From a virus (Duplodnaviria > Heunggongvirae > Uroviricota > Caudoviricetes), in the IMG/VR virus record IMGVR_UViG_2563366806_000005: a stretch of 36,246 nt of DNA; one strand, 5' to 3'. The translations under genes were made by a program, and so were the position numbers. Of the stretch, positions 1 through 12,011 are shown piece after piece (positions within the stretch are counted from its first letter, which is position 1; the number at the start of each line of letters is the position of its first letter). A model generated the notes under the pieces. That model was not told where the DNA came from. It did not search any database and saw nothing but the letters and a program-made list of their open reading frames with translations.

Positions 1-1053
1 TTACGGGGTAATGCCAACCGCTGCCGCCACTTTGTCGCCACTTGGCAGCGTTGCCAGAGGATTGAAACGGAGCGCCGTTTCCAGATGATCCGGTGCCAGA
101 TGTGCGTAACGCATAGTCATTTTTATATCGTGGTGTCCGAGAATTTTTTGTAAGGCCAGAATGTTTCCACCCGACATCATGAAGTGCGCCGCAAACGTAT
201 GGCGCAGAACGTGTGTGAGTTGACCGCGAGGGAGCACGATAGACGTTTTTTCCATCACGGATAAAAATTGAAAATAGCAGTCTGTGAAGAAATTGAACCC
301 ATCAAGCGCCATGATCTCTTCGTAAAGCTCTTTACTGATAGGGATGCTTCTGTTTTTCTTCCCCTTCGTTCTTACAAAGGTAATTCGGTATTTGGTCACC
401 TGTGAACGAGTAAGATTTACGGCTTCTCGCCAGCGTGCGCCTGTGCTTAAGCATATCTTAACTACCAGTGCCAGAATTGGGTCCTGACGTTTGCAATCAG
501 CCAGTAATTCAACAATCTGCTCATGGGTAAGCCATGCCATCTCTTTTTCTGCGATGGTGAATTTTCGCATGTTCTCCAGTGGGTTCGGATACGACCATTC
601 GCCCAGGCGGGATAGTTCGCTAAAAACACTACTTAGATAGCTTTGCTCCAGGTTAATGGTGACCGGGCTTGCTCCTTTCTTCCATTTCTCGCTGAAGTAG
701 ATCTCACCTGTCAGGCGTTTATCTCGATAGTGGGCAAACATTTTAGAGGTTAGATCAGTTGCAAGGGGATTGCCCAGAGCGTCAACCATCAGCAGCAATT
801 TGTCATAGACATGCTGCCCAGCAGTCAGTGATTTACCATGTAGTTTGAACCATAGCTCAACCACGTCTTTCAGTGTTCGACGATCCACTGATTCACCTAG
901 CCAGGGCTTTGCTTCGGTTTCTTCCATCGTGTGACGCTCAAAAGCCAGTGCTTCGCCTTTGGTGGCGAATTGTTTACGCACACGACGCCCACTACGTCCG
1001 GCGGGGTAACATTCGCAAAGCCATTTTCCTGTGGTGAGTTTTCGTACAGCCAT
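1..1053 (-). CDS. int: Tyrosine recombinase / integrase (P2/186 Int family), about 350 aa
   Basis: C-terminal catalytic region HVLRHTFAAHFMMSGGNILALQKILGHHDIKMTMRYAHL (R..HxxR..Y signature); N-terminus MAVRKLTTGKW resembles P2 Int; ATG at 1053 preferred over the upstream in-frame start at 1131. Confidence 0.9.
   Translation of the reverse strand: MAVRKLTTGKWLCECYPAGRSGRRVRKQFATKGEALAFERHTMEETEAKPWLGESVDRRTLKDVVELWFKLHGKSLTAGQHVYDKLLLMVDALGNPLATDLTSKMFAHYRDKRLTGEIYFSEKWKKGASPVTINLEQSYLSSVFSELSRLGEWSYPNPLENMRKFTIAEKEMAWLTHEQIVELLADCKRQDPILALVVKICLSTGARWREAVNLTRSQVTKYRITFVRTKGKKNRSIPISKELYEEIMALDGFNFFTDCYFQFLSVMEKTSIVLPRGQLTHVLRHTFAAHFMMSGGNILALQKILGHHDIKMTMRYAHLAPDHLETALRFNPLATLPSGDKVAAAVGITP
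19..40. repeat. attL: Candidate attL core, cgctgccgccactttgtcgcca, direct repeat of 33392-33413
   Basis: 21 of 22 nt identical to the sequence immediately after the ogr stop codon; lies inside the 3' end of int, so the last int codons would be host-derived if this is the core. Confidence 0.4.
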
Positions 1054-1241
1054 AAAAAATGCCCTCCAATAGAGAGCATTTTTACTGTATGTATAACCAG
1101 TGTCAATGTATGAAATCCTGCGACCATACATCTCACTGAAGCCATAATGAAGTAGGCTATTCTTTTTGCTATGTGATCATGTAACTTTTGCGGTTAACCT
1201 GTGGCTCATTTTTATTTTAGGCGCAGATATAAAAGCAAAAG

Positions 1242-1448: not shown

Positions 1449-2018
1449 CTATTTAACATACTTGACTGTTAAACTTATAATTTTACCAATTATTTCAATG
1501 TCTTCTATCTTACATTCAAAGGCTCTGTTTCCACCCTCGACGAAGATTCTTCCACCGGGTAAACGAGTAATGTCACGGATCGTTATTTCGCCATCAATAC
1601 TTATTACCCATTTACCATCACGTATATCATCAAATTCCTTATCACAAATAAATTCAGAATTATTATCTGTGATTACAAAAAGATTCTTGAATGCCGACGG
1701 TAGAAATTCTCTATCGAAAATATAAAAACCGTCTTCACACAAGGCCCCATCAGATAATACATATTTAGCAACTTCCATAGTATTTGTATTACCTGAAGTT
1801 TGCTTTGAACCATGCCCGGTTGTGAGCCAATTAAGCGAGGTGCCTGTTTCAAGGGCGCACTGGATTACCCATTCTGCTGGGAATGAGTCACGCATGTAGC
1901 GTGTGGCGAGTGTACTTTTAGAGATTCCTAAATGATCGCACAACGCCTGTCGAGTCTTGAATCCATAAGCTTCTACCATGCGCTCTATGGCGCCTCGTCC
2001 GCCTTTCTCCAAATTCAT
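1449..2018 (-). CDS. cI: CI-type immunity repressor (phage 186 CI-like)
   Basis: About 190 aa, N-terminal HTH-like segment (LCDHLGISKSTLATRYMRDSFP), position between int and apl, same strand as int; start taken at the ATG at 2018 with a GGAG RBS (track start 2024 is GTG). Confidence 0.75.
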   Translation of the reverse strand: MNLEKGGRGAIERMVEAYGFKTRQALCDHLGISKSTLATRYMRDSFPAEWVIQCALETGTSLNWLTTGHGSKQTSGNTNTMEVAKYVLSDGALCEDGFYIFDREFLPSAFKNLFVITDNNSEFICDKEFDDIRDGKWVISIDGEITIRDITRLPGGRIFVEGGNRAFECKIEDIEIIGKIISLTVKYVK

Positions 2019-2042
2019 GGTCACTCCAAGTGAACTTTTATC

Positions 2043-3948: not shown

Positions 3949-4802
3949 GCACCATCCTGAAATGGGCGGGAAATAAAACTGCCATAATGTCCGAACTAAA
4001 AAAACATCTTCCTGCTGGCCCGCGACTGGTTGAACCTTTCGCGGGTTCCTGTGCTGTGATGATGGAGACGGATTATCCCAGCTATCTGGTTGCGGATATT
4101 AATCCTGATTTAATCAACCTCTATAAAAAGGTTGCCGCTGATTGTGAATCGTTTATATCTCGCGCCAGAGTTTTATTTGAGATCGCAAACAGGGAGATGG
4201 CTTATTACAACATAAGGCAGGAGTTTAATTACTCAACTGAAATTACTGATTTCATGAAAGCGGTATATTTCCTGTATCTCAATCGTCACGGTTACCGTGG
4301 TTTATGTCGCTATAACAAGAGCGGGCATTTCAACATTCCCTACGGTAATTATAAAAATCCGTATTTCCCTGAAAAAGAAATTCGCGCATTTGCAGAAAAG
4401 GCCCAGCGAGCAACGTTTATCTGCGCCAGCTTTGATGAAACGCTGGCGATGTTGAAGGCGGGGGATGTGGTGTATTGCGATCCGCCGTATGACGGTACGT
4501 TTTCCGGCTATCACACTGACGGCTTCACTGAAGATGACCAGTATCACCTGGCATCTGTTCTTGAACATCGGTCATCAGAAGGACATCCGGTCATTGTTTC
4601 TAACAGTGACACATCCCTGATCCGTTCGCTGTATCGCAATTTTACTCACCACTACATCAAGGCAAAACGCAGCATCGGTGTGGCAGCTGGCGAGGGTAAA
4701 TCAGCAACAGAAATCATTGCTGTTTCCGGGCCGCGCTGCTGGGTGGGATTTGATTATTCGCGTGGCGTGGATAGTTCTGCCGTGTACGGAGTACATGCAT
4801 GA
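3945..4802 (+). CDS. dam: DNA adenine methyltransferase (Dam family, GATC-type), orphan
   Basis: N-terminal AdoMet motif [11 protein letters not shown] and catalytic DPPY motif (VYCDPPYDG); RBS ggagg before ATG 3945; no adjacent restriction gene. Confidence 0.85.
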
Positions 4803-7213
4803 GTCATGCCGATATGAACAACTGCTGCGGCTTTAACGAAGCTGCCGCATCGTTCTCATGGAACAGCCCGAAAAAGGCCATTAACCCTTATCTGGACCCG
4901 GTGGAAGTTGCGCCGGTTTCTACGCTTTCAAACCTGATCACTCTGTACGCTGCCGATAACGAGCAGGAACAGCTGCGCCGTGAGGCGCTGAGTGATCAGG
5001 TCTGGGAGCGTTATTTCTTTAATGAATCCCGTGATCCTGTCCAGCGCGAAATGGAACAGGATAAGCTCATTAGTCGGGCAAAGCTGGCGCATGAGCAGCA
5101 GCGTTTTAATCCGGATATGGTCATTCTGGCGGACGTCAACGCCCAGCCTTCCCATATCAGCAAGCCGCTGATGCAACGTATTGAATACTTCAGCAGCCTG
5201 GGCAGGCCAAAGGCTTATTCCCGCTATTTACGTGAGACGATTAAGCCATGTCTGGAACGACTGGAGCATGTACGCGACAGTCAGCTATCTGCATCTTTTC
5301 GCTTTATGGCAAGCCATGAAGGGCTGGACGGCCTGCTGATCCTGCCTGAAATGAGTCAGGATCAGGTGAAACGCCTGTCCACCCTGGTAGCTGCGCATAT
5401 GAGTATGTGCCTTGATGCCGCTTGTGGCGATTTGTATGCCACCGATGACGTTAAGCCAGAAGAAATCCGCAATACATGGGAAAGGGTGGCAGCGGAAACC
5501 CTGCGTCTGGATGTCATCCCGCCTGCGTTTGAGCAACTCCGTCGGAAAAGAAACCGCCGTAAACCCGTGCCCTATGAACTCATTCCGGGTTCGCTGGCGC
5601 GTATGTTGTGCGCCGACTGGTGGTATCGGAAATTATGGAAGATGCGTTGCGAATGGCGGGAAGAGCAGTTGCGTGCTGTCTGCCTTGTCAGCAAAAAAGC
5701 ATCTCCCTATGTCAGCTATGAAGCCGTGTTGCATAAACGTGAGCAGCGCCGTAAGTCGCTGGAGTTTTTCCGTTCTCATGAACTGGTGAACGAAGACGGC
5801 GACACGCTAGACATGGAGGATGTGGTAAACGCCAGCAGCAGCAACCCTGCGCATCGCCGCAATGAGATGATGGCCTGTGTTAAAGGTCTGGAGCTTATCG
5901 CGGAAATGCGCGGTGACTGCGCCGTTTTCTACACCATCACCTGTCCGTCACGTTTCCATTCCACGCTAAATAACGGCAGGCCCAATCCGACCTGGACAAA
6001 TGCGACGGTAAGACAAAGCAGCGATTATCTGGTCGGTATGTTTGCTGCATTTCGTAAGGCGATGCACAAAGCCGGGTTGCGCTGGTATGGCGTGCGGGTG
6101 GCTGAGCCGCATCACGACGGCACAGTTCACTGGCACCTGTTGTGTTTCATGCGCAAAAAAGACCGCCGCGCCATTACAGCATTGTTGCGTAAGTTTGCTA
6201 TCCGTGAAGACCGCGAGGAGCTGGGCAATAACACGGGGCCGCGCTTTAAGTCTGAGCTGATTAACCCGCGCAAAGGAACGCCGACAAGCTACATAGCGAA
6301 ATACATCAGTAAGAACATTGACGGGCGTGGTCTGGCTGGCGAGATCAGCAAGGAAACGGGTAAATCTCTGCGTGATAACGCTGAATACGTGAATGCCTGG
6401 GCGTCTTTGCATCGTGTTCAGCAATTCCGCTTCTTTGGCATTCCGGGGCGTCAGGCTTACCGTGAACTGCGATTGCTGGCTGGTCAGGCGGTAAGGCAAA
6501 AGGGGGACAAAAAAGCAGGTGCGCCGGTACTGGATAACCCGCGCCTTGATGCCATCCTGGCTGCTGCTGATGCTGGTTGTTTTGCCACCTACATCATGAA
6601 GCAGGGCGGCGTACTGGTTCCCCGTAAATATCACCTCATCAGAACCGCTTATGAAATCAACGAAGAGCCGACCGCCTATGGCGATCACGGCATTCGTATT
6701 TATGGCATCTGGTCACCCATTGCAGAGGGCAAGATCTGCACTCATGCAGTGAAGTGGAAAATGGTTCGTAAAGCCGTTGACGTTCAGGAGGCGGCAGCCG
6801 ACCAGGGCGCTTGCGCCCCTTGGACTCGTGGCAATAACTGTCCCCTTGCTGAAAATTTGAACCAACAAGGGAAAGACAAATCAGCTGATGGGGATACCAG
6901 GACGGACATTACCCGCATGGATGACAAGGCGTTGCACGATTACCTGCACAGTATGAGCAAAAAAGAGCGCCGGGAACTAGCTGCAAGGTTACGCCTGGTG
7001 AAACCGAAACGGCGTAAAGACTACAAACAGCGAATTACAGACCATCAGCGACAGCAGCTCGTCTATGAACTGAAGTCCAGAGGATTTGATGGCAGCGAGA
7101 AAGAGGTCGATTTACTCCTTCGCGGCGGCAGTATTCCGTCAGGAGCAGGCCTGCGTATCTTCTATCGGAACCAGCGTTTGCAGGAAGATGATAAGTGGCG
7201 AAACCTGTATTAA
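4799..7213 (+). CDS. A: Replication initiation endonuclease A (P2 gpA / 186 A, rolling-circle initiator)
   Basis: 804-aa protein with [10 protein letters not shown] and HWHLLCF motifs typical of P2 A; position after early genes. Confidence 0.85.
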
Positions 7214-7305
7214 TTACGCGGGTTAACAATTCGTGCTCTTAATAATACCAGGCATATCAGGCTGATGAACGTAAAAAAACGTTTTACATCAGTAAGATTA
7301 TTATA

Positions 7306-7325
7306 TACTGTAAATATAAACAGTG
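7306..7325 (+). promoter_or_regulatory. LexA operator (SOS box) tACTGTaaatataaACAGtg upstream of tum
   Basis: Perfect CTGT-N8-ACAG with AT-rich spacer, about 45 nt upstream of the tum start. Confidence 0.75.
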
Positions 7326-7366
7326 GTTATACATACAGTATTGCTTGTGGTGTCATAGGAGGAAAG

Positions 7367-7555
7367 ATGCAGGACTATTTTTTGGAGTCTTTGAAGCTCC
7401 AGCGCATTGATTTTTTTCTTAAACTTGTAGCGGCTAGTGAGTGTAGTGATGAAGAGAAGGGGCTGGCTTTGCAGTGGGTTTCTGAACTGACAGATGAACT
7501 CATGGCAAAAATCAGAACCCACGAATACAACCGCTCAATGGATGTCATCAGCTGA
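7367..7555 (+). CDS. tum: Tum-like antirepressor, N-terminal part (62 aa)
   Basis: RBS aggagg before ATG 7367; downstream of the LexA box as for 186 tum; overlaps the next ORF in another frame. Confidence 0.5.
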   Translation: MQDYFLESLKLQRIDFFLKLVAASECSDEEKGLALQWVSELTDELMAKIRTHEYNRSMDVIS

Positions 7556-7565
7556 GGTGACTTTT

Positions 7566-7799
7566 ATGCGCATTGAAATAATGATCGATAAAGAGCAGAA
7601 GATTAGCCAGTCTACCCTGGACGCCCTTGAATCCGAGCTTTACCGCAATCTGCGCCCCCTGTATCCAAAAACGGTAATTCGCATCCGCAAAGGTAGCTCT
7701 AACGGTGTGGAACTGACCGGACTGCAACTGGACGAAGAAAGGAAGCAAGTGATGAAAATTATGCAGAAGGTGTGGGAAGACGACAGCTGGCTGCATTAA
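7566..7799 (+). CDS. DinI-like protein (Tum C-terminal-like module)
   Basis: MRIEIMIDKEQKISQSTLDALESELYRNL...KIMQKVWEDDSWLH resembles E. coli DinI (MRIEVTIAK...ETWESADDWF); RBS gaggtg. Confidence 0.7.
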   Translation: MRIEIMIDKEQKISQSTLDALESELYRNLRPLYPKTVIRIRKGSSNGVELTGLQLDEERKQVMKIMQKVWEDDSWLH

Positions 7800-7921
7800 G
7801 AAACGTTGCTGGCGTCTGAACTTGCTTCTGGCGTCAGCAAGGTTGAACAACGAGCTGTGCGAGGCGTTAGTTGATATAGTATCAATATATAAAAGGTTTC
7901 TCGAAGTTTTAAGGTAAGGTT

Positions 7922-8641
7922 ATGACAACTATTAACAAGCATGGGTTATCTAGAACAATTCCTGAACCTGTAAAACTGGAGGTAAGGCAGCGCTGTGGCT
8001 TCGGTTGCGTTGTTTGTGCTTCTCCCATTGTTGAGTATGAGCATGTAATTCCCACATACGCTGATGCAAAGGAGCACTCTCCAAATGCAATAGCACTACT
8101 TTGTCCTACGTGCCATGCGAAAGTAACGAAACGTCTTTACTCTAAAGAGAAAATAATTAAAGCAATGGAATCTCCTGCAGCCTTACAAAAAGGGAATGTG
8201 GCCGATATATTGGACTTTTCTGATAGGCATCCAACAATAATATTTGGTGGTGCGACGTTTGAATCCTGTACTGTACCAATAATGTTTCAAAATGAGCCAT
8301 TGTTAACCATTGAAAAAGAAAATAATGCTTTTCTTATTTCGGGTAAATTTTACGATAGTCAAGGTATTGTTAATCTTGAATTAATTAAGAATGAGTGGGT
8401 TTGTAGTGCAAGGCATTGGGATGTTCAGGTTGTCGGTCCTAGAATAACTATTATAGAAAAAAGGAAAGGTCCTCGTTTAATTATTAAAGTTGATGCGCCT
8501 GAAAGATTGATTGTGGAAAGATTAGATATGTTGGTTAAGGGGACTCGGATTGTAGGAGACGAACACAAGCTAAGAGTAGGTCCACATCAATTTCACAACT
8601 GTGGAGTTTCAAATTGCAATATTGGTTTCTGCTTTGGCTAA
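7922..8641 (+). CDS. Uncharacterised HNH-motif (zinc-finger nuclease-like) protein, 239 aa; candidate accessory or defence gene
   Basis: CGFGCVVC...EYEHVIP...N..LLCPTCH (CxxC..H..N..CxxCH HNH-type signature) at the N-terminus; AT-rich; located between tum and cos, the P2 old/tin-equivalent position. Confidence 0.55.
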   Translation: MTTINKHGLSRTIPEPVKLEVRQRCGFGCVVCASPIVEYEHVIPTYADAKEHSPNAIALLCPTCHAKVTKRLYSKEKIIKAMESPAALQKGNVADILDFSDRHPTIIFGGATFESCTVPIMFQNEPLLTIEKENNAFLISGKFYDSQGIVNLELIKNEWVCSARHWDVQVVGPRITIIEKRKGPRLIIKVDAPERLIVERLDMLVKGTRIVGDEHKLRVGPHQFHNCGVSNCNIGFCFG

Positions 8642-8754
8642 CTGGAGGTTGGAAAAAGACCATTTCCTATAAGCTGAGTATTTCGTACATTTTTGCCAAC
8701 GCATGTCTATGCCGCATGAAATCGCATGATCGTTTGAGGATCGTTTTTGCTGAT

Positions 8755-8779
8755 GCCCGCCAGAGCTGGCGGGCTTTTG
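8755..8779 (+). terminator. Rho-independent terminator after the HNH gene
   Basis: gcccgcc-agagct-ggcgggc stem-loop followed by tttt. Confidence 0.5.
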
Positions 8780-8823
8780 CTTATGTCATGCAGGTGCATG
8801 AAAACCACTACACAAAGCGGGCA

Positions 8824-8842
8824 GGCGTGGCGGGGATACGAG
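8824..8842. other. cos: Candidate cos (cohesive end) sequence GGCGTGGCGGGGATACGAG
   Basis: Resembles the P2/186 cohesive-end sequence as I recall it (GGCG[A/T]GGCGGGGAAAGCA.) followed by GCGCGC; located between the right-end genes and portal Q, where cos lies in P2. Confidence 0.4.
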
Positions 8843-8864
8843 CGCGCGCCATGTGGTATGGAGA

Positions 8865-8893
8865 TTGGATCTATTCATAACTTGATGTATAAA
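8865..8893 (+). promoter_or_regulatory. Candidate retron operon promoter (-35 ttggat, 17-bp spacer, -10 tataaa)
   Basis: Hexamers read directly, about 25 nt upstream of the effector start. Confidence 0.35.
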
Positions 8894-8916
8894 GTAGAAA
8901 AAAAAGCGGGGAGATT

Positions 8917-9840
8917 ATGAATAAAAAATTTACCGATGAGCAGCAACAACAGCTTATAGGACATCTCACAAAGAAAGGCTTCTATCGAGGAGCTAATATT
9001 AAAATAACCATTTTTCTATGTGGTGGTGACGTTGCTAATCATCAATCTTGGCGTCATCAATTATCACAATTTTTAGCAAAGTTCAGTGATGTTGATATAT
9101 TTTATCCAGAAGATCTATTTGATGATCTTTTGGCTGGTCAAGGGCAGCATAGCCTTTTAAGTTTAGAAAATATTCTGGCTGAAGCTGTCGATGTAATAAT
9201 TTTATTTCCTGAAAGTCCGGGGTCTTTCACAGAGCTTGGTGCGTTCTCTAATAATGAAAACTTAAGGAGAAAGTTGATTTGCATTCAAGATGCAAAATTT
9301 AAATCAAAACGTAGCTTTATTAACTATGGTCCTGTTCGCCTGTTGCGTAAGTTTAATTCAAAATCTGTTTTGCGTTGTAGTTCAAATGAACTAAAAGAAA
9401 TGTGTGATTCATCTATTGATGTTGCCAGAAAATTACGATTATATAAAAAATTAATGGCATCTATTAAGAAGGTTAGGAAAGAAAATAAAGTATCAAAAGA
9501 TATTGGAAATATATTATACGCAGAGCGGTTTCTATTGCCTTGTATCTATTTACTGGATAGTGTCAACTACCGCACACTGTGTGAACTAGCTTTTAAAGCG
9601 ATAAAGCAAGATGATGTTTTATCTAAAATTATTGTTAGATCCGTTGTTTCTCGTCTAATAAATGAACGAAAAATACTTCAAATGACTGATGGTTATCAGG
9701 TCACTGCTTTGGGGGCTAGCTATGTTAGGAGCGTCTTTGATAGAAAGACACTTGACCGATTGCGGCTTGAGATTATGAATTTTGAAAACCGTAGAAAATC
9801 AACATTTAACTATGATAAGATTCCGTATGCGCACCCTTAG
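8917..9840 (+). CDS. Retron accessory effector, 307 aa (Ec86/Eco1-type; reported as nucleoside deoxyribosyltransferase-like N-glycosidase plus DNA-binding domain)
   Basis: Immediately upstream of msr-msd and RT, same strand, stop codon inside msr repeat a1; AT-rich; function assignment is from recalled literature on Ec86, not from a motif I can verify by eye. Confidence 0.8.
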   Translation: MNKKFTDEQQQQLIGHLTKKGFYRGANIKITIFLCGGDVANHQSWRHQLSQFLAKFSDVDIFYPEDLFDDLLAGQGQHSLLSLENILAEAVDVIILFPESPGSFTELGAFSNNENLRRKLICIQDAKFKSKRSFINYGPVRLLRKFNSKSVLRCSSNELKEMCDSSIDVARKLRLYKKLMASIKKVRKENKVSKDIGNILYAERFLLPCIYLLDSVNYRTLCELAFKAIKQDDVLSKIIVRSVVSRLINERKILQMTDGYQVTALGASYVRSVFDRKTLDRLRLEIMNFENRRKSTFNYDKIPYAHP

Positions 9841-9996
9841 CGAGAGGTTTATCATTAAGGTCAACCTCTGGATGTTGTTTCGGCATCCTGCATTGAATCT
9901 GAGTTACTGTCTGTTTTCCTTGTTGGAACGGAGAGCATCGCCTGATGCTCTCCGAGCCAACCAGGAAACCCGTTTTTTCTGACGTAAGGGTGCGCA
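9828..9996 (+). ncRNA. msr-msd: Retron msr-msd non-coding RNA (template for msDNA), Ec86/Eco1-type
   Basis: Flanked by 12-nt inverted repeats a1 tgcgcaccctta (9828-9839) and a2 taagggtgcgca (9985-9996); internal stem-loops gaggtt..aacctc and ggagagcatc..gatgctctcc; sequence matches the Ec86 ncRNA as I recall it. Confidence 0.9.
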
Positions 9997-10002
9997 ACTT
10001 TC

Positions 10003-10965
10003 ATGAAATCCGCTGAATATTTGAACACTTTTAGATTGAGAAATCTCGGCCTACCTGTCATGAACAATTTGCATGACATGTCTAAGGCGACTCGCATATC
10101 TGTTGAAACACTTCGGTTGTTAATCTATACAGCTGATTTTCGCTATAGGATCTACACTGTAGAAAAGAAAGGCCCAGAGAAGAGAATGAGAACCATTTAC
10201 CAACCTTCTCGAGAACTTAAAGCCTTACAAGGATGGGTTCTACGTAACATTTTAGATAAACTGTCGTCATCTCCTTTTTCTATTGGATTTGAAAAGCACC
10301 AATCTATTTTGAATAATGCTACCCCGCATATTGGGGCAAACTTTATACTGAATATTGATTTGGAGGATTTTTTCCCAAGTTTAACTGCTAACAAAGTTTT
10401 TGGAGTGTTCCATTCTCTTGGTTATAATCGACTAATATCTTCAGTTTTGACAAAAATATGTTGTTATAAAAATCTGCTACCACAAGGTGCTCCATCATCA
10501 CCTAAATTAGCTAATCTAATATGTTCTAAACTTGATTATCGTATTCAGGGTTATGCAGGTAGTCGGGGCTTGATATATACGAGATATGCCGATGATCTCA
10601 CCTTATCTGCACAGTCTATGAAAAAGGTTGTTAAAGCACGTGATTTTTTATTTTCTATAATCCCAAGTGAAGGATTGGTTATTAACTCAAAAAAAACTTG
10701 TATTAGTGGGCCTCGTAGTCAGAGGAAAGTTACAGGTTTAGTTATTTCACAAGAGAAAGTTGGGATAGGTAGAGAAAAATATAAAGAAATTAGAGCAAAG
10801 ATACATCATATATTTTGCGGTAAGTCTTCTGAGATAGAACACGTTAGGGGATGGTTGTCATTTATTTTAAGTGTGGATTCAAAAAGCCATAGAAGATTAA
10901 TAACTTATATTAGCAAATTAGAAAAAAAATATGGAAAGAACCCTTTAAATAAAGCGAAGACCTAA
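10003..10965 (+). CDS. ret: Retron reverse transcriptase, 320 aa
   Basis: Retron-RT motifs NLLPQGAPSSPKLANL and RYADDLTLS (YADD box); starts 7 nt after repeat a2. Confidence 0.95.
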   Translation: MKSAEYLNTFRLRNLGLPVMNNLHDMSKATRISVETLRLLIYTADFRYRIYTVEKKGPEKRMRTIYQPSRELKALQGWVLRNILDKLSSSPFSIGFEKHQSILNNATPHIGANFILNIDLEDFFPSLTANKVFGVFHSLGYNRLISSVLTKICCYKNLLPQGAPSSPKLANLICSKLDYRIQGYAGSRGLIYTRYADDLTLSAQSMKKVVKARDFLFSIIPSEGLVINSKKTCISGPRSQRKVTGLVISQEKVGIGREKYKEIRAKIHHIFCGKSSEIEHVRGWLSFILSVDSKSHRRLITYISKLEKKYGKNPLNKAKT

Positions 10966-10980
10966 TGGTCTTCGTTTTAA
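10956..10980 (+). terminator. Possible terminator hairpin at the RT stop codon
   Basis: gaagacc-taat-ggtcttc perfect 7-bp stem followed by gtttta. Confidence 0.35.
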
Positions 10981-10982
10981 AA

Positions 10983-12011
10983 CTAAAGCTCATAGGTTGA
11001 AAAATTGAGCACTTCTTCGTCCAACCAGTTATTTAGTTCCTGCAATCGTTTCTGCAGGGGCATCAATTCGTTTCTTACGAATACCTTGCTAGCCTTCTCC
11101 ACATCCCCAAACCCCCCGACATTATTAGGCATAATTCCCATCATTTGCGGCGGCACGCGGTGTGCCGCCATCATGTCATCACGGCTCACGTTCTTGATAT
11201 TCAGAAACTCATCCTTCGCTGCGACTTCTGACAACGGGATAATCTGAAGTCCGTCTTTTTTACCATTAGGCGAGTACATAAACAGGTTGCGGAAGTTGCC
11301 AGGGCCTTTGGCACTTTTCATCGCATTGCGGAGGTTGTTCACATCTTCCTGGTTCTGCGCGGCATCGGTCATGTACATGATGAAGCCTGCATGACTACCG
11401 TTAATGTAATACTTTCGGCGGAACAGCGTGGCGGACTCGTTGAGCAGGGCGGATGGGATGGCAGAAAGATAGCCGGGCAGGCCGTAGATCTCCTGGTTGA
11501 TGTCCGGTTCCATCAGATGAAAAATGCTGCCTTTCGTGAACTGATACGGCTGCGTGGTCATGCCGTATTGCACAAACCAGTAGGTATCTAGGTCTAATCC
11601 GCGTCGGGTGTATTTTGCCAGCGCAGGCTCAAGGGCGATAACTTCACCGAATCGGTTCGTGCGTTTCTCCAGGTAGGCGTTACCAAAAACCAGATAGTCC
11701 TGCACAAAACGTGAAAACGCCTGCTGGCTGAGCAGCGGGTGAGGGATGTAGGTGCTGGTCAGAATGTTGCACTTTACTGCAATCGGTGAACTGTGGTGTA
11801 CGGCGGCGCGGAATGTTCGCGCCAGTCCGTCAAAACTTACGGGTGGCTCATACCAGCGGTCCATCTTTACGCATTCCACATAGTCCAGTAATTCGCGGCG
11901 GTCCAGAACAGGAACGGGATCACCGAAGCTGAATGCTTCGGCTGAAGTTTGGTTTTTATGCTGGATCTGGTTCGTCGCCGCAGCGCGGTTTTTCTTACTC
12001 TTTCCCATCAA
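10983..12011 (-). CDS. Q: Portal protein (P2 gpQ)
   Basis: 342 aa, position and orientation as P2 Q, translationally coupled to P. Confidence 0.85.
   Translation of the reverse strand: MMGKSKKNRAAATNQIQHKNQTSAEAFSFGDPVPVLDRRELLDYVECVKMDRWYEPPVSFDGLARTFRAAVHHSSPIAVKCNILTSTYIPHPLLSQQAFSRFVQDYLVFGNAYLEKRTNRFGEVIALEPALAKYTRRGLDLDTYWFVQYGMTTQPYQFTKGSIFHLMEPDINQEIYGLPGYLSAIPSALLNESATLFRRKYYINGSHAGFIMYMTDAAQNQEDVNNLRNAMKSAKGPGNFRNLFMYSPNGKKDGLQIIPLSEVAAKDEFLNIKNVSRDDMMAAHRVPPQMMGIMPNNVGGFGDVEKASKVFVRNELMPLQKRLQELNNWLDEEVLNFSTYEL

Follow-up and report, generated by a model that had tools for sequence, protein, structure and literature searches.

Is the tum locus of the prophage analysed here a broken gene, a gene read through a shift of frame, or a pair of intact genes? 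The question arises at positions 7283-7799 of the window (the whole stretch of viral DNA that was analysed, 36,246 nucleotides): a sequence-only reading had placed there an SOS-controlled tum module that appeared to be split into two open reading frames (here ORF1 and ORF2) relative to the single tum gene of coliphage 186, and had set a frameshifted tum, a programmed shift and a two-protein arrangement side by side. At the sequence level, an SOS (LexA)-controlled, tum-type module in two parts was borne out, and among the three explanations the two-protein arrangement is the right one: it has been published for the phages Fels-2 and PSP3, and the PSP3 record annotates the two genes as tumA and tumB. 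The module is very probably the natural, already described two-gene tumA-tumB SOS operon of 186/Fels-2/PSP3-type P2-like prophages; the split into two genes being published already, no new biology is revealed by it.

Prophage context of the module

Judged by its gene content, the whole window represents a complete-looking P2/186/Fels-2-type prophage of 36 kb. The left end is occupied by an integrase gene (1-1131, minus strand), followed by the gene of a presumably non-cleavable CI repressor of the 186 type, on which TumA is presumed to act (1449-2024, minus strand; 33% identity to 186 CI over 175 aa, E=9e-38; phrog_4, transcriptional repressor, E=4.8e-45). Flanking the CI gene, an Apl/Cox-like gene (2144-2365) and, beside it, a CII-like gene (2392-2907) were recognised by PHROG profiles. 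The gpA replication gene (4799-7213; Pfam Phage_GPA, E=2.3e-127) is succeeded by the tum module, approximately 3 kb of cargo and then the portal, terminase and late genes. The placement of the module directly downstream of gpA is identical in 186, PSP3 and Fels-2.

LexA box and presumed promoter

A LexA (SOS) box, TACTGTAAATATAAACAGTG, is present on the plus strand at 7306-7325, exactly where the sequence-only reading had located a near-consensus site; it agrees in 17 of 20 positions with the 20-nt consensus used for scoring (TACTGTATATATATACAGTA). Nowhere else in the 36 kb of the window is this level of match reached, nor did any of 100 shuffled sequences yield one. The bare core CTGT-N8-ACAG by itself is weak and unconvincing evidence for a LexA box: it occurs once in the window at a chance expectation of 0.38, and at least once in 32 of 100 shuffles. 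A LexA box at the matching position relative to the gene was found in 12 of the 13 compared loci (including those of Fels-2, SEN8, SopEPhi, Yersinia MLG42, PSP3, 186 and ESSI-2), the exception being ST13phi12.1 with a variant box that carries one core mismatch.

The site, putatively bound by LexA, lies 5' of ORF1 and overlaps a presumed p95-like sigma-70 promoter (7283-7311, plus strand) that consists of TTTACA (7283-7288), a 17-nt spacer and TACTGT (7306-7311). The -10 hexamer TACTGT forms the left arm of the LexA box, which matches the annotation of the 186 record: directly after gene A, this record shows the promoter p95 (-35 TTCACA, -10 TACTGT), a LexA site overlapping the -10 hexamer, and a tum gene of 146 aa. 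The p95-like promoter of the window was thus placed by reading of the sequence and by analogy with 186 p95. A strict promoter consensus scan did not report 7283-7311, the hexamers being weak; the annotated hexamers of 186 p95 would likewise fail the criteria of such a scan.

A half-site-like element, TATACATACAGTA, is situated 15 bp downstream of the LexA box (7328-7340) and is kept as TATAnnTACAG in the compared Fels-2-type loci. Regarded as a second LexA box, it would reach roughly 16/20 of the consensus by manual count, with a poor left arm (GTGG versus CTGT).

The second gene: a DinI-family protein

ORF2 (7566-7799, plus strand; ATG at 7566, TAA at 7797-7799) encodes a tumB-like protein of 77 aa that belongs to the DinI family over its full length: Pfam DinI (PF06183) was matched along profile positions 1-63 of 63 with E=6.6e-23 (81.3 bits versus a gathering cut-off of 24.2), phrog_189 ("RecA filament binding protein DinI") with E=1.5e-29, and the E. 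coli DinI structure 1GHH over the full length with E=2.7e-6. At the amino acid level, the protein is 100% identical to STM2726.1 of Fels-2, which is described in the Fels-2 record as similar to PSP3 TumB, and 41% identical to residues 71-145 of 186 Tum (E=3e-24), i.e. to the DinI-like C-terminal half of the latter. The claim of a DinI-like ORF with an ATG at 7566 supported by a ribosome-binding site was therefore substantiated by the Pfam match and by a Shine-Dalgarno-like GAGGTGA (7555-7561, plus strand), which shares its first base with the final position of the tumA stop. A Shine-Dalgarno sequence precedes ORF2 in every compared locus, the relatives carrying a purine-rich motif (AAGGA, GGGGA or AGGGGA) at equal spacing before the ATG.

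In the window, the Shine-Dalgarno sequence of tumB is covered by a small hairpin (7544-7561) that was flagged as terminator-like by the scan. A coupling structure is not proposed for this hairpin, the junction sequence being different in the relatives.

The first gene: a presumed antirepressor

The 62-aa ORF1 was confirmed at 7367-7555 (plus strand; ATG at 7367, TGA at 7553-7555), with a strong AGGAGG upstream of its ATG. It shows 98.4% amino acid identity to its orthologue in Fels-2, STM2728; its database labels are mostly "hypothetical protein" or, oddly, "levan regulatory protein". Pairwise BLASTP gave no match of ORF1 to 186 Tum, including the N-terminal half of Tum, or to PSP3 TumA. PSP3 TumA and the N-terminal half of 186 Tum also gave no match to each other, which makes the pairwise test powerless for these short, fast-evolving proteins; in consequence, the homology of ORF1 to the N-terminal half of Tum rests on profiles and synteny. 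The alignment to 186 Tum, which the sequence-only reading had suggested as a check, thus connected ORF2 directly and ORF1 by way of profiles.

Among the PHROG families, ORF1 matched phrog_698 (E=3.6e-38) and phrog_8554 (E=2.4e-8), and 186 Tum matched the same two, phrog_8554 with 1.4e-11 and phrog_698 with 2.4e-5 (residues 7-44 on profile positions 7-44), besides phrog_1993, the family of PSP3 TumA, with 1e-22. In an hhalign comparison of the ORF1 family with the family of the 186 Tum N-terminal half, columns 3-43 were aligned on columns 3-43 (P=0.0015, at a probability of only 17%), and a five-way alignment of the proteins from the window, Fels-2, PSP3 (TumA), 186 (N-terminal half of Tum) and ESSI-2 revealed Cys26 and Ala34-Leu35 as invariant. 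Based on these profile links together with the identical position and regulation, the interpretation that suits ORF1 best is that of a diverged homologue of the half of 186 Tum that carries the antirepressor; its homology to this half or to PSP3 TumA is apparent at profile level only. A search of 1.8 billion representative proteins with an HMM of the ORF1 family returned 87 matches, nearly all of them short and none with a DinI fusion downstream of the match; at E<=1e-3, 186 Tum was not recovered.

According to the AlphaFold model, ORF1 is predicted to form a helical (two-helix) hairpin (pLDDT 89.8). Foldseek of this model against the PDB produced generic hairpin matches only (E>0.8), a PDB sequence search with ORF1 gave nothing meaningful, no Pfam family was matched, and no published experiment on the phrog_698 protein family was found. 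The missing Pfam family, PDB relative and informative fold match would suit a different explanation, as would the database names quoted above and the near-invariance of the protein across phages with very different CI proteins: ORF1 might be no antirepressor but an unrelated small leader in a LexA-controlled phage dinI operon, in which case any induction would proceed by another route. This explanation is improbable in view of the profile links to the N-terminal half of 186 Tum and to a family common to both, and of the position, LexA control and DinI partner, which are those of PSP3 tumA, a gene tied by its record to UV induction. Likewise, ESSI-2-type phages retain the LexA box and a TumA-like gene without dinI, which argues for the small gene as the core that is conserved in the SOS unit. 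The near-invariance of the protein, in turn, could reflect a common target, as the N-terminal domain of CI is 68-77% identical among the phages that share TumA.

In Cronobacter phage ESSI-2 (locus L004, 1460-1680) and in phage ESSI2_ev015 (locus L012, 560-813), a LexA box precedes a TumA-like gene that is 41-49% identical to ORF1; no DinI gene is present in the ESSI-2-type phages, and the next genes are located on the opposite strand. Furthermore, among the close homologues (75-85% identity; P0149-P0240) of the N-terminal half of 186 Tum, many are stand-alone proteins of 63-72 aa that end in …FSIVFSAKPIEN, some of them named "Tum protein" by NCBI; their existence indicates that the split occurs within the 186-type lineage, too.

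Junction between the two genes

The junction was compared across ten loci, nine of Fels-2 type and that of PSP3. ORF1 comprises 62 aa in all nine Fels-2-type loci (PSP3 TumA: 60 aa) and ORF2 77 aa in all nine loci with an intact copy; the intergenic gap amounts to 3, 10, 11, 12 or 13 nt. In the window, a TGA codon (7553-7555), a gap of 10 nt and a change of frame by +1 separate the two genes, which do not make up a single polypeptide of the 186 Tum form. The relative frame of ORF1 and ORF2 is +1 in the window, Fels-2, Cartapus and ST13phi12.1, +2 in SEN8, SopEPhi and ST437phi4.1, and 0 with an in-frame stop between the genes in Yersinia MLG42 and PSP3; as it takes all three values, a conserved programmed frameshift is excluded.

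The frame of ORF2 had been claimed to be open upstream to 7494, and indeed it extends back to an ATG at this position, giving a maximal ORF of 101 aa. The overlap of the two ORFs that had been deduced holds true for this maximal ORF, not for the start supported by the ribosome-binding site, from which the genes lie 10 nt apart. The open stretch 5' of the ORF2 ATG varies between 3 and 75 nt in orthologous loci, which makes the overlap in the window incidental.

Selection on the two genes pointed the same way. In five divergent comparisons (dS roughly 0.8-1.9), dN/dS was approximately 0.08 for ORF1 (dS approximately 0.9-1.1) and 0.05-0.10 for ORF2; if the ORF1 region was read in the other two frames, the ratios exceeded 1.6. 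Both genes are under strong purifying selection and neither is decaying.

A programmed +1 (or -2) ribosomal frameshift within the overlap (7494-7555), by which a Tum-like fusion would be produced beside the two separate products, is very unlikely against this background. In the window, Fels-2 and Cartapus, no stop interrupts the frame of ORF2 over the final 62 nt of ORF1, and 186 does make a full-length and a DinI-only product, from one reading frame; the relative frame in the relatives, however, is +1, +2 or 0 with the in-frame stop, no more than 3-42 nt are left open in them 5' of the ORF2 start, the ORF1 region lacks coding constraint in its other two frames, and no slippery motif was noticed by eye in the junction sequences. 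Practically negligible is a frameshifted or pseudogenised tum, i.e. a single 186-like gene broken by an indel or a sequencing error with SOS inducibility lost or waning: the 62+77 = 139 aa of both ORFs together do come near the 146 aa of Tum in 186, as had been claimed (about 140 aa), and the ORFs do lie in different frames with that of ORF2 open 75 nt upstream, but the exact ORF lengths are kept across genera (the 62+77-aa layout is found in 1125 complete E. coli genomes as well as in phages of Salmonella, Klebsiella and Yersinia), both genes show the low dN/dS ratios given above at substantial dS, every ORF2 comes with an ATG and a Shine-Dalgarno motif of its own, Fels-2 is reported to be inducible with the same layout (Bunny et al. 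2002, as cited in the literature discussed below), and real disruption looks otherwise, as seen in Escherichia phage 500465-1. What was found is consequently the outcome that the sequence-only reading had itself put down as a refutation, namely two normal independent genes.

In phage 500465-1 (locus L010, 601-1131), tumA contains a scrambled internal stretch (…EERGWLCSGVSEL…), and a 1-nt deletion early in tumB creates a stop. These disruptions are either sequencing errors or genuine decay; they serve as an example of real frame disruption at such a locus. In Escherichia phage Cartapus (locus L013, 601-1033), tumA is near-identical to that of the window (dS 0.09, dN 0) and tumB has strongly diverged (dS 1.08), a contrast that suggests recombination with its breakpoint in the junction of tumA and tumB or close to it.

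Comparison with known systems

Lemire et al. 2011 (PMC3121763) describe Tum as resembling an antirepressor fused to DinI and state, citing Bunny et al. 2002, that a stop codon splits tum in two in Fels-2 and PSP3; that the upstream gene of PSP3 acts as an antirepressor is mentioned there second-hand, as a personal communication. By its title and its citation in PMC3121763, the work of Bunny et al. 2002 reports Fels-2 as lethal in a lexA null background, i.e. as inducible. For 186 Tum, the mechanism consists in reversible sequestration of CI, with p95 under the control of LexA (PMC7708051). A literature search on the names tumA and tumB returned unrelated papers only.

Closest to the window is Fels-2: its STM2728/STM2726.1 pair shares the LexA box, the 10-nt gap, the +1 relative frame and the identical position after gpA, and differs by a few synonymous changes and one C-terminal residue (S62N), whereas the gene 3' of tumB is unrelated and the CI proteins are only approximately 39-41% identical. 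PSP3 (NC_005340) likewise has a LexA box, a tumA of about 60 aa and a DinI-like tumB of 77 aa directly after its gpA homologue; its record describes tumA as "similar to 5' end 186 tum; UV induction of prophage" and tumB as "similar to dinI and 3' end of 186 tum". In contrast to the window, the gap in PSP3 is 3 nt, both genes lie in one frame with a stop codon between them, and TumA belongs to another family (phrog_1993) with approximately 23% aligned identity to ORF1. Coliphage 186 resembles the window in the LexA-repressed promoter after gene A and in the succession of an N-terminal antirepressor part and a C-terminal DinI-like part; it deviates in that both parts are encoded in one reading frame and that the N-terminal part bears no more than a remote similarity to ORF1. 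The DinI-like part is also made alone in 186, from an internal start: the record lists four in-frame tum products, the last of which begins at a GTG preceded by a Shine-Dalgarno sequence, comprises 76 aa, is DinI-like and "modulates SOS induction".

A more distant parallel is provided by the dinI-gfoA/gftA operons of Gifsy-1/2/3, which, as described by Lemire et al. 2011 (PMC3121763), are LexA-controlled and combine a DinI homologue with a small antirepressor that binds a non-cleavable repressor. Unlike in the window, dinI comes first, the phages are lambdoid, and the repressors and antirepressor families are unrelated.

Proposed mode of action

Following the published work on 186, PSP3 and Fels-2, the tumA-tumB operon of the window would act as follows. 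In the lysogen, host LexA on the 7306-7325 box, which overlaps the p95-like -10 hexamer, would keep the operon off; upon DNA damage, RecA-stimulated self-cleavage of LexA would allow its transcription. The 62-aa TumA, by its predicted helical hairpin, would bind the 186-type CI (1449-2024) and prevent it from binding to its operators, so that the early lytic promoter would be derepressed reversibly and without repressor cleavage, as is the case for 186 Tum. The 77-aa TumB would be translated from its own ribosome-binding site 10 nt past the tumA stop and, as a DinI homologue, would most likely bind RecA filaments and modulate the SOS signal, a role in line with the shorter, DinI-like tum products from internal starts that are annotated in the 186 record.

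Diversity of CI and possible cross-induction

Among the compared loci L014-L021, a TumA identity of 98-100% goes together with a CI that shares only 38-54% identity with that of the window. The identity of the CI proteins is unevenly distributed: among the TumA-sharing phages, it amounts to 68-77% in the N-terminal DNA-binding domain and to 23-41% in the C-terminal domain. In 186, the N-terminal domain of CI is only 42% identical to that of the window, and the N-terminal half of Tum is very different from TumA. A near-invariant TumA beside divergent CI proteins would be unexpected if TumA were strictly immunity-specific. It is conceivable, though on present indications doubtful, that one near-invariant TumA allele serves many immunity types via the conserved N-terminal domain of CI; this comparison of TumA and CI, from a small sample of phages that are not independent of each other, is to be taken as a lead only. 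If TumA did act on the N-terminal domain, a single SOS-induced TumA could derepress co-resident heterologous Fels-2-like prophages. Such an effect would amount to cross-induction, as has already been shown for the Gifsy antirepressors, and separation from DinI would leave antirepressor and RecA modulator free to recombine apart from each other.

Distribution and annotation

Of 5426 complete E. coli genomes, 1125 carry the split module and 42 the fused 186 form: it is the fused gene of 186 that represents the unusual form, not the split one. Recognition of a tumA-tumB pair marks a prophage as probably SOS-inducible. This is of value for annotation, since the 62-aa gene usually goes as "hypothetical" or under the misleading "levan regulatory protein" and the second gene as "DinI" only. 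With roughly one in five complete E. coli genomes carrying the pair, its recognition bears on the release of phages under DNA-damaging antibiotics, and on the transfer of adjacent cargo under the same conditions.

The 3' border of the module and the cargo region

Directly 3' of tumB, a strong hairpin without U tract is predicted at 7802-7844 (plus strand; fold of 7795-7880 with MFE -29.6 kcal/mol, z=-2.7), possibly a partial terminator or an element that stabilises the RNA where the conserved module ends. An Rfam scan of 7000-11200 gave no match. The approximately 70 nt past the tumB stop (7800-7870) are 90-97% conserved in many E. coli and Klebsiella phages, after which conservation ends, and by eye they are partly conserved in PSP3, too; this stretch may mark the edge of a cargo insertion hotspot. 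The variable cargo region begins immediately 3' of tumB.

The first cargo gene discussed here, a 239-aa ORF with an HNH motif (7922-8641; Pfam HNH, E=2.4e-5; phrog_6544, E=2.5e-111), occupies the slot of 186 orf97 and of Fels-2 STM2726, all three being approximately 240 aa in length. It was considered as an orf97 homologue and rejected as such: by BLASTP, the HNH ORF, orf97 and STM2726 are mutually unrelated.

The cargo slot after the tum module also harbours a type II-A retron (8917-10965), composed of an NDT-like effector (8917-9840; PADLOC NDT_II-A, E=2.7e-94) and a reverse transcriptase (10003-10965; PADLOC RT_II-A, E=7.1e-128). Two 12-nt inverted repeats, TGCGCACCCTTA (9828-9839) and TAAGGGTGCGCA (9985-9996), enclose a hairpin with 25-nt arms (9915-9968), an arrangement as expected for msr-msd; the retron sequence of the window is one that we take to match retron Ec86/Eco1.
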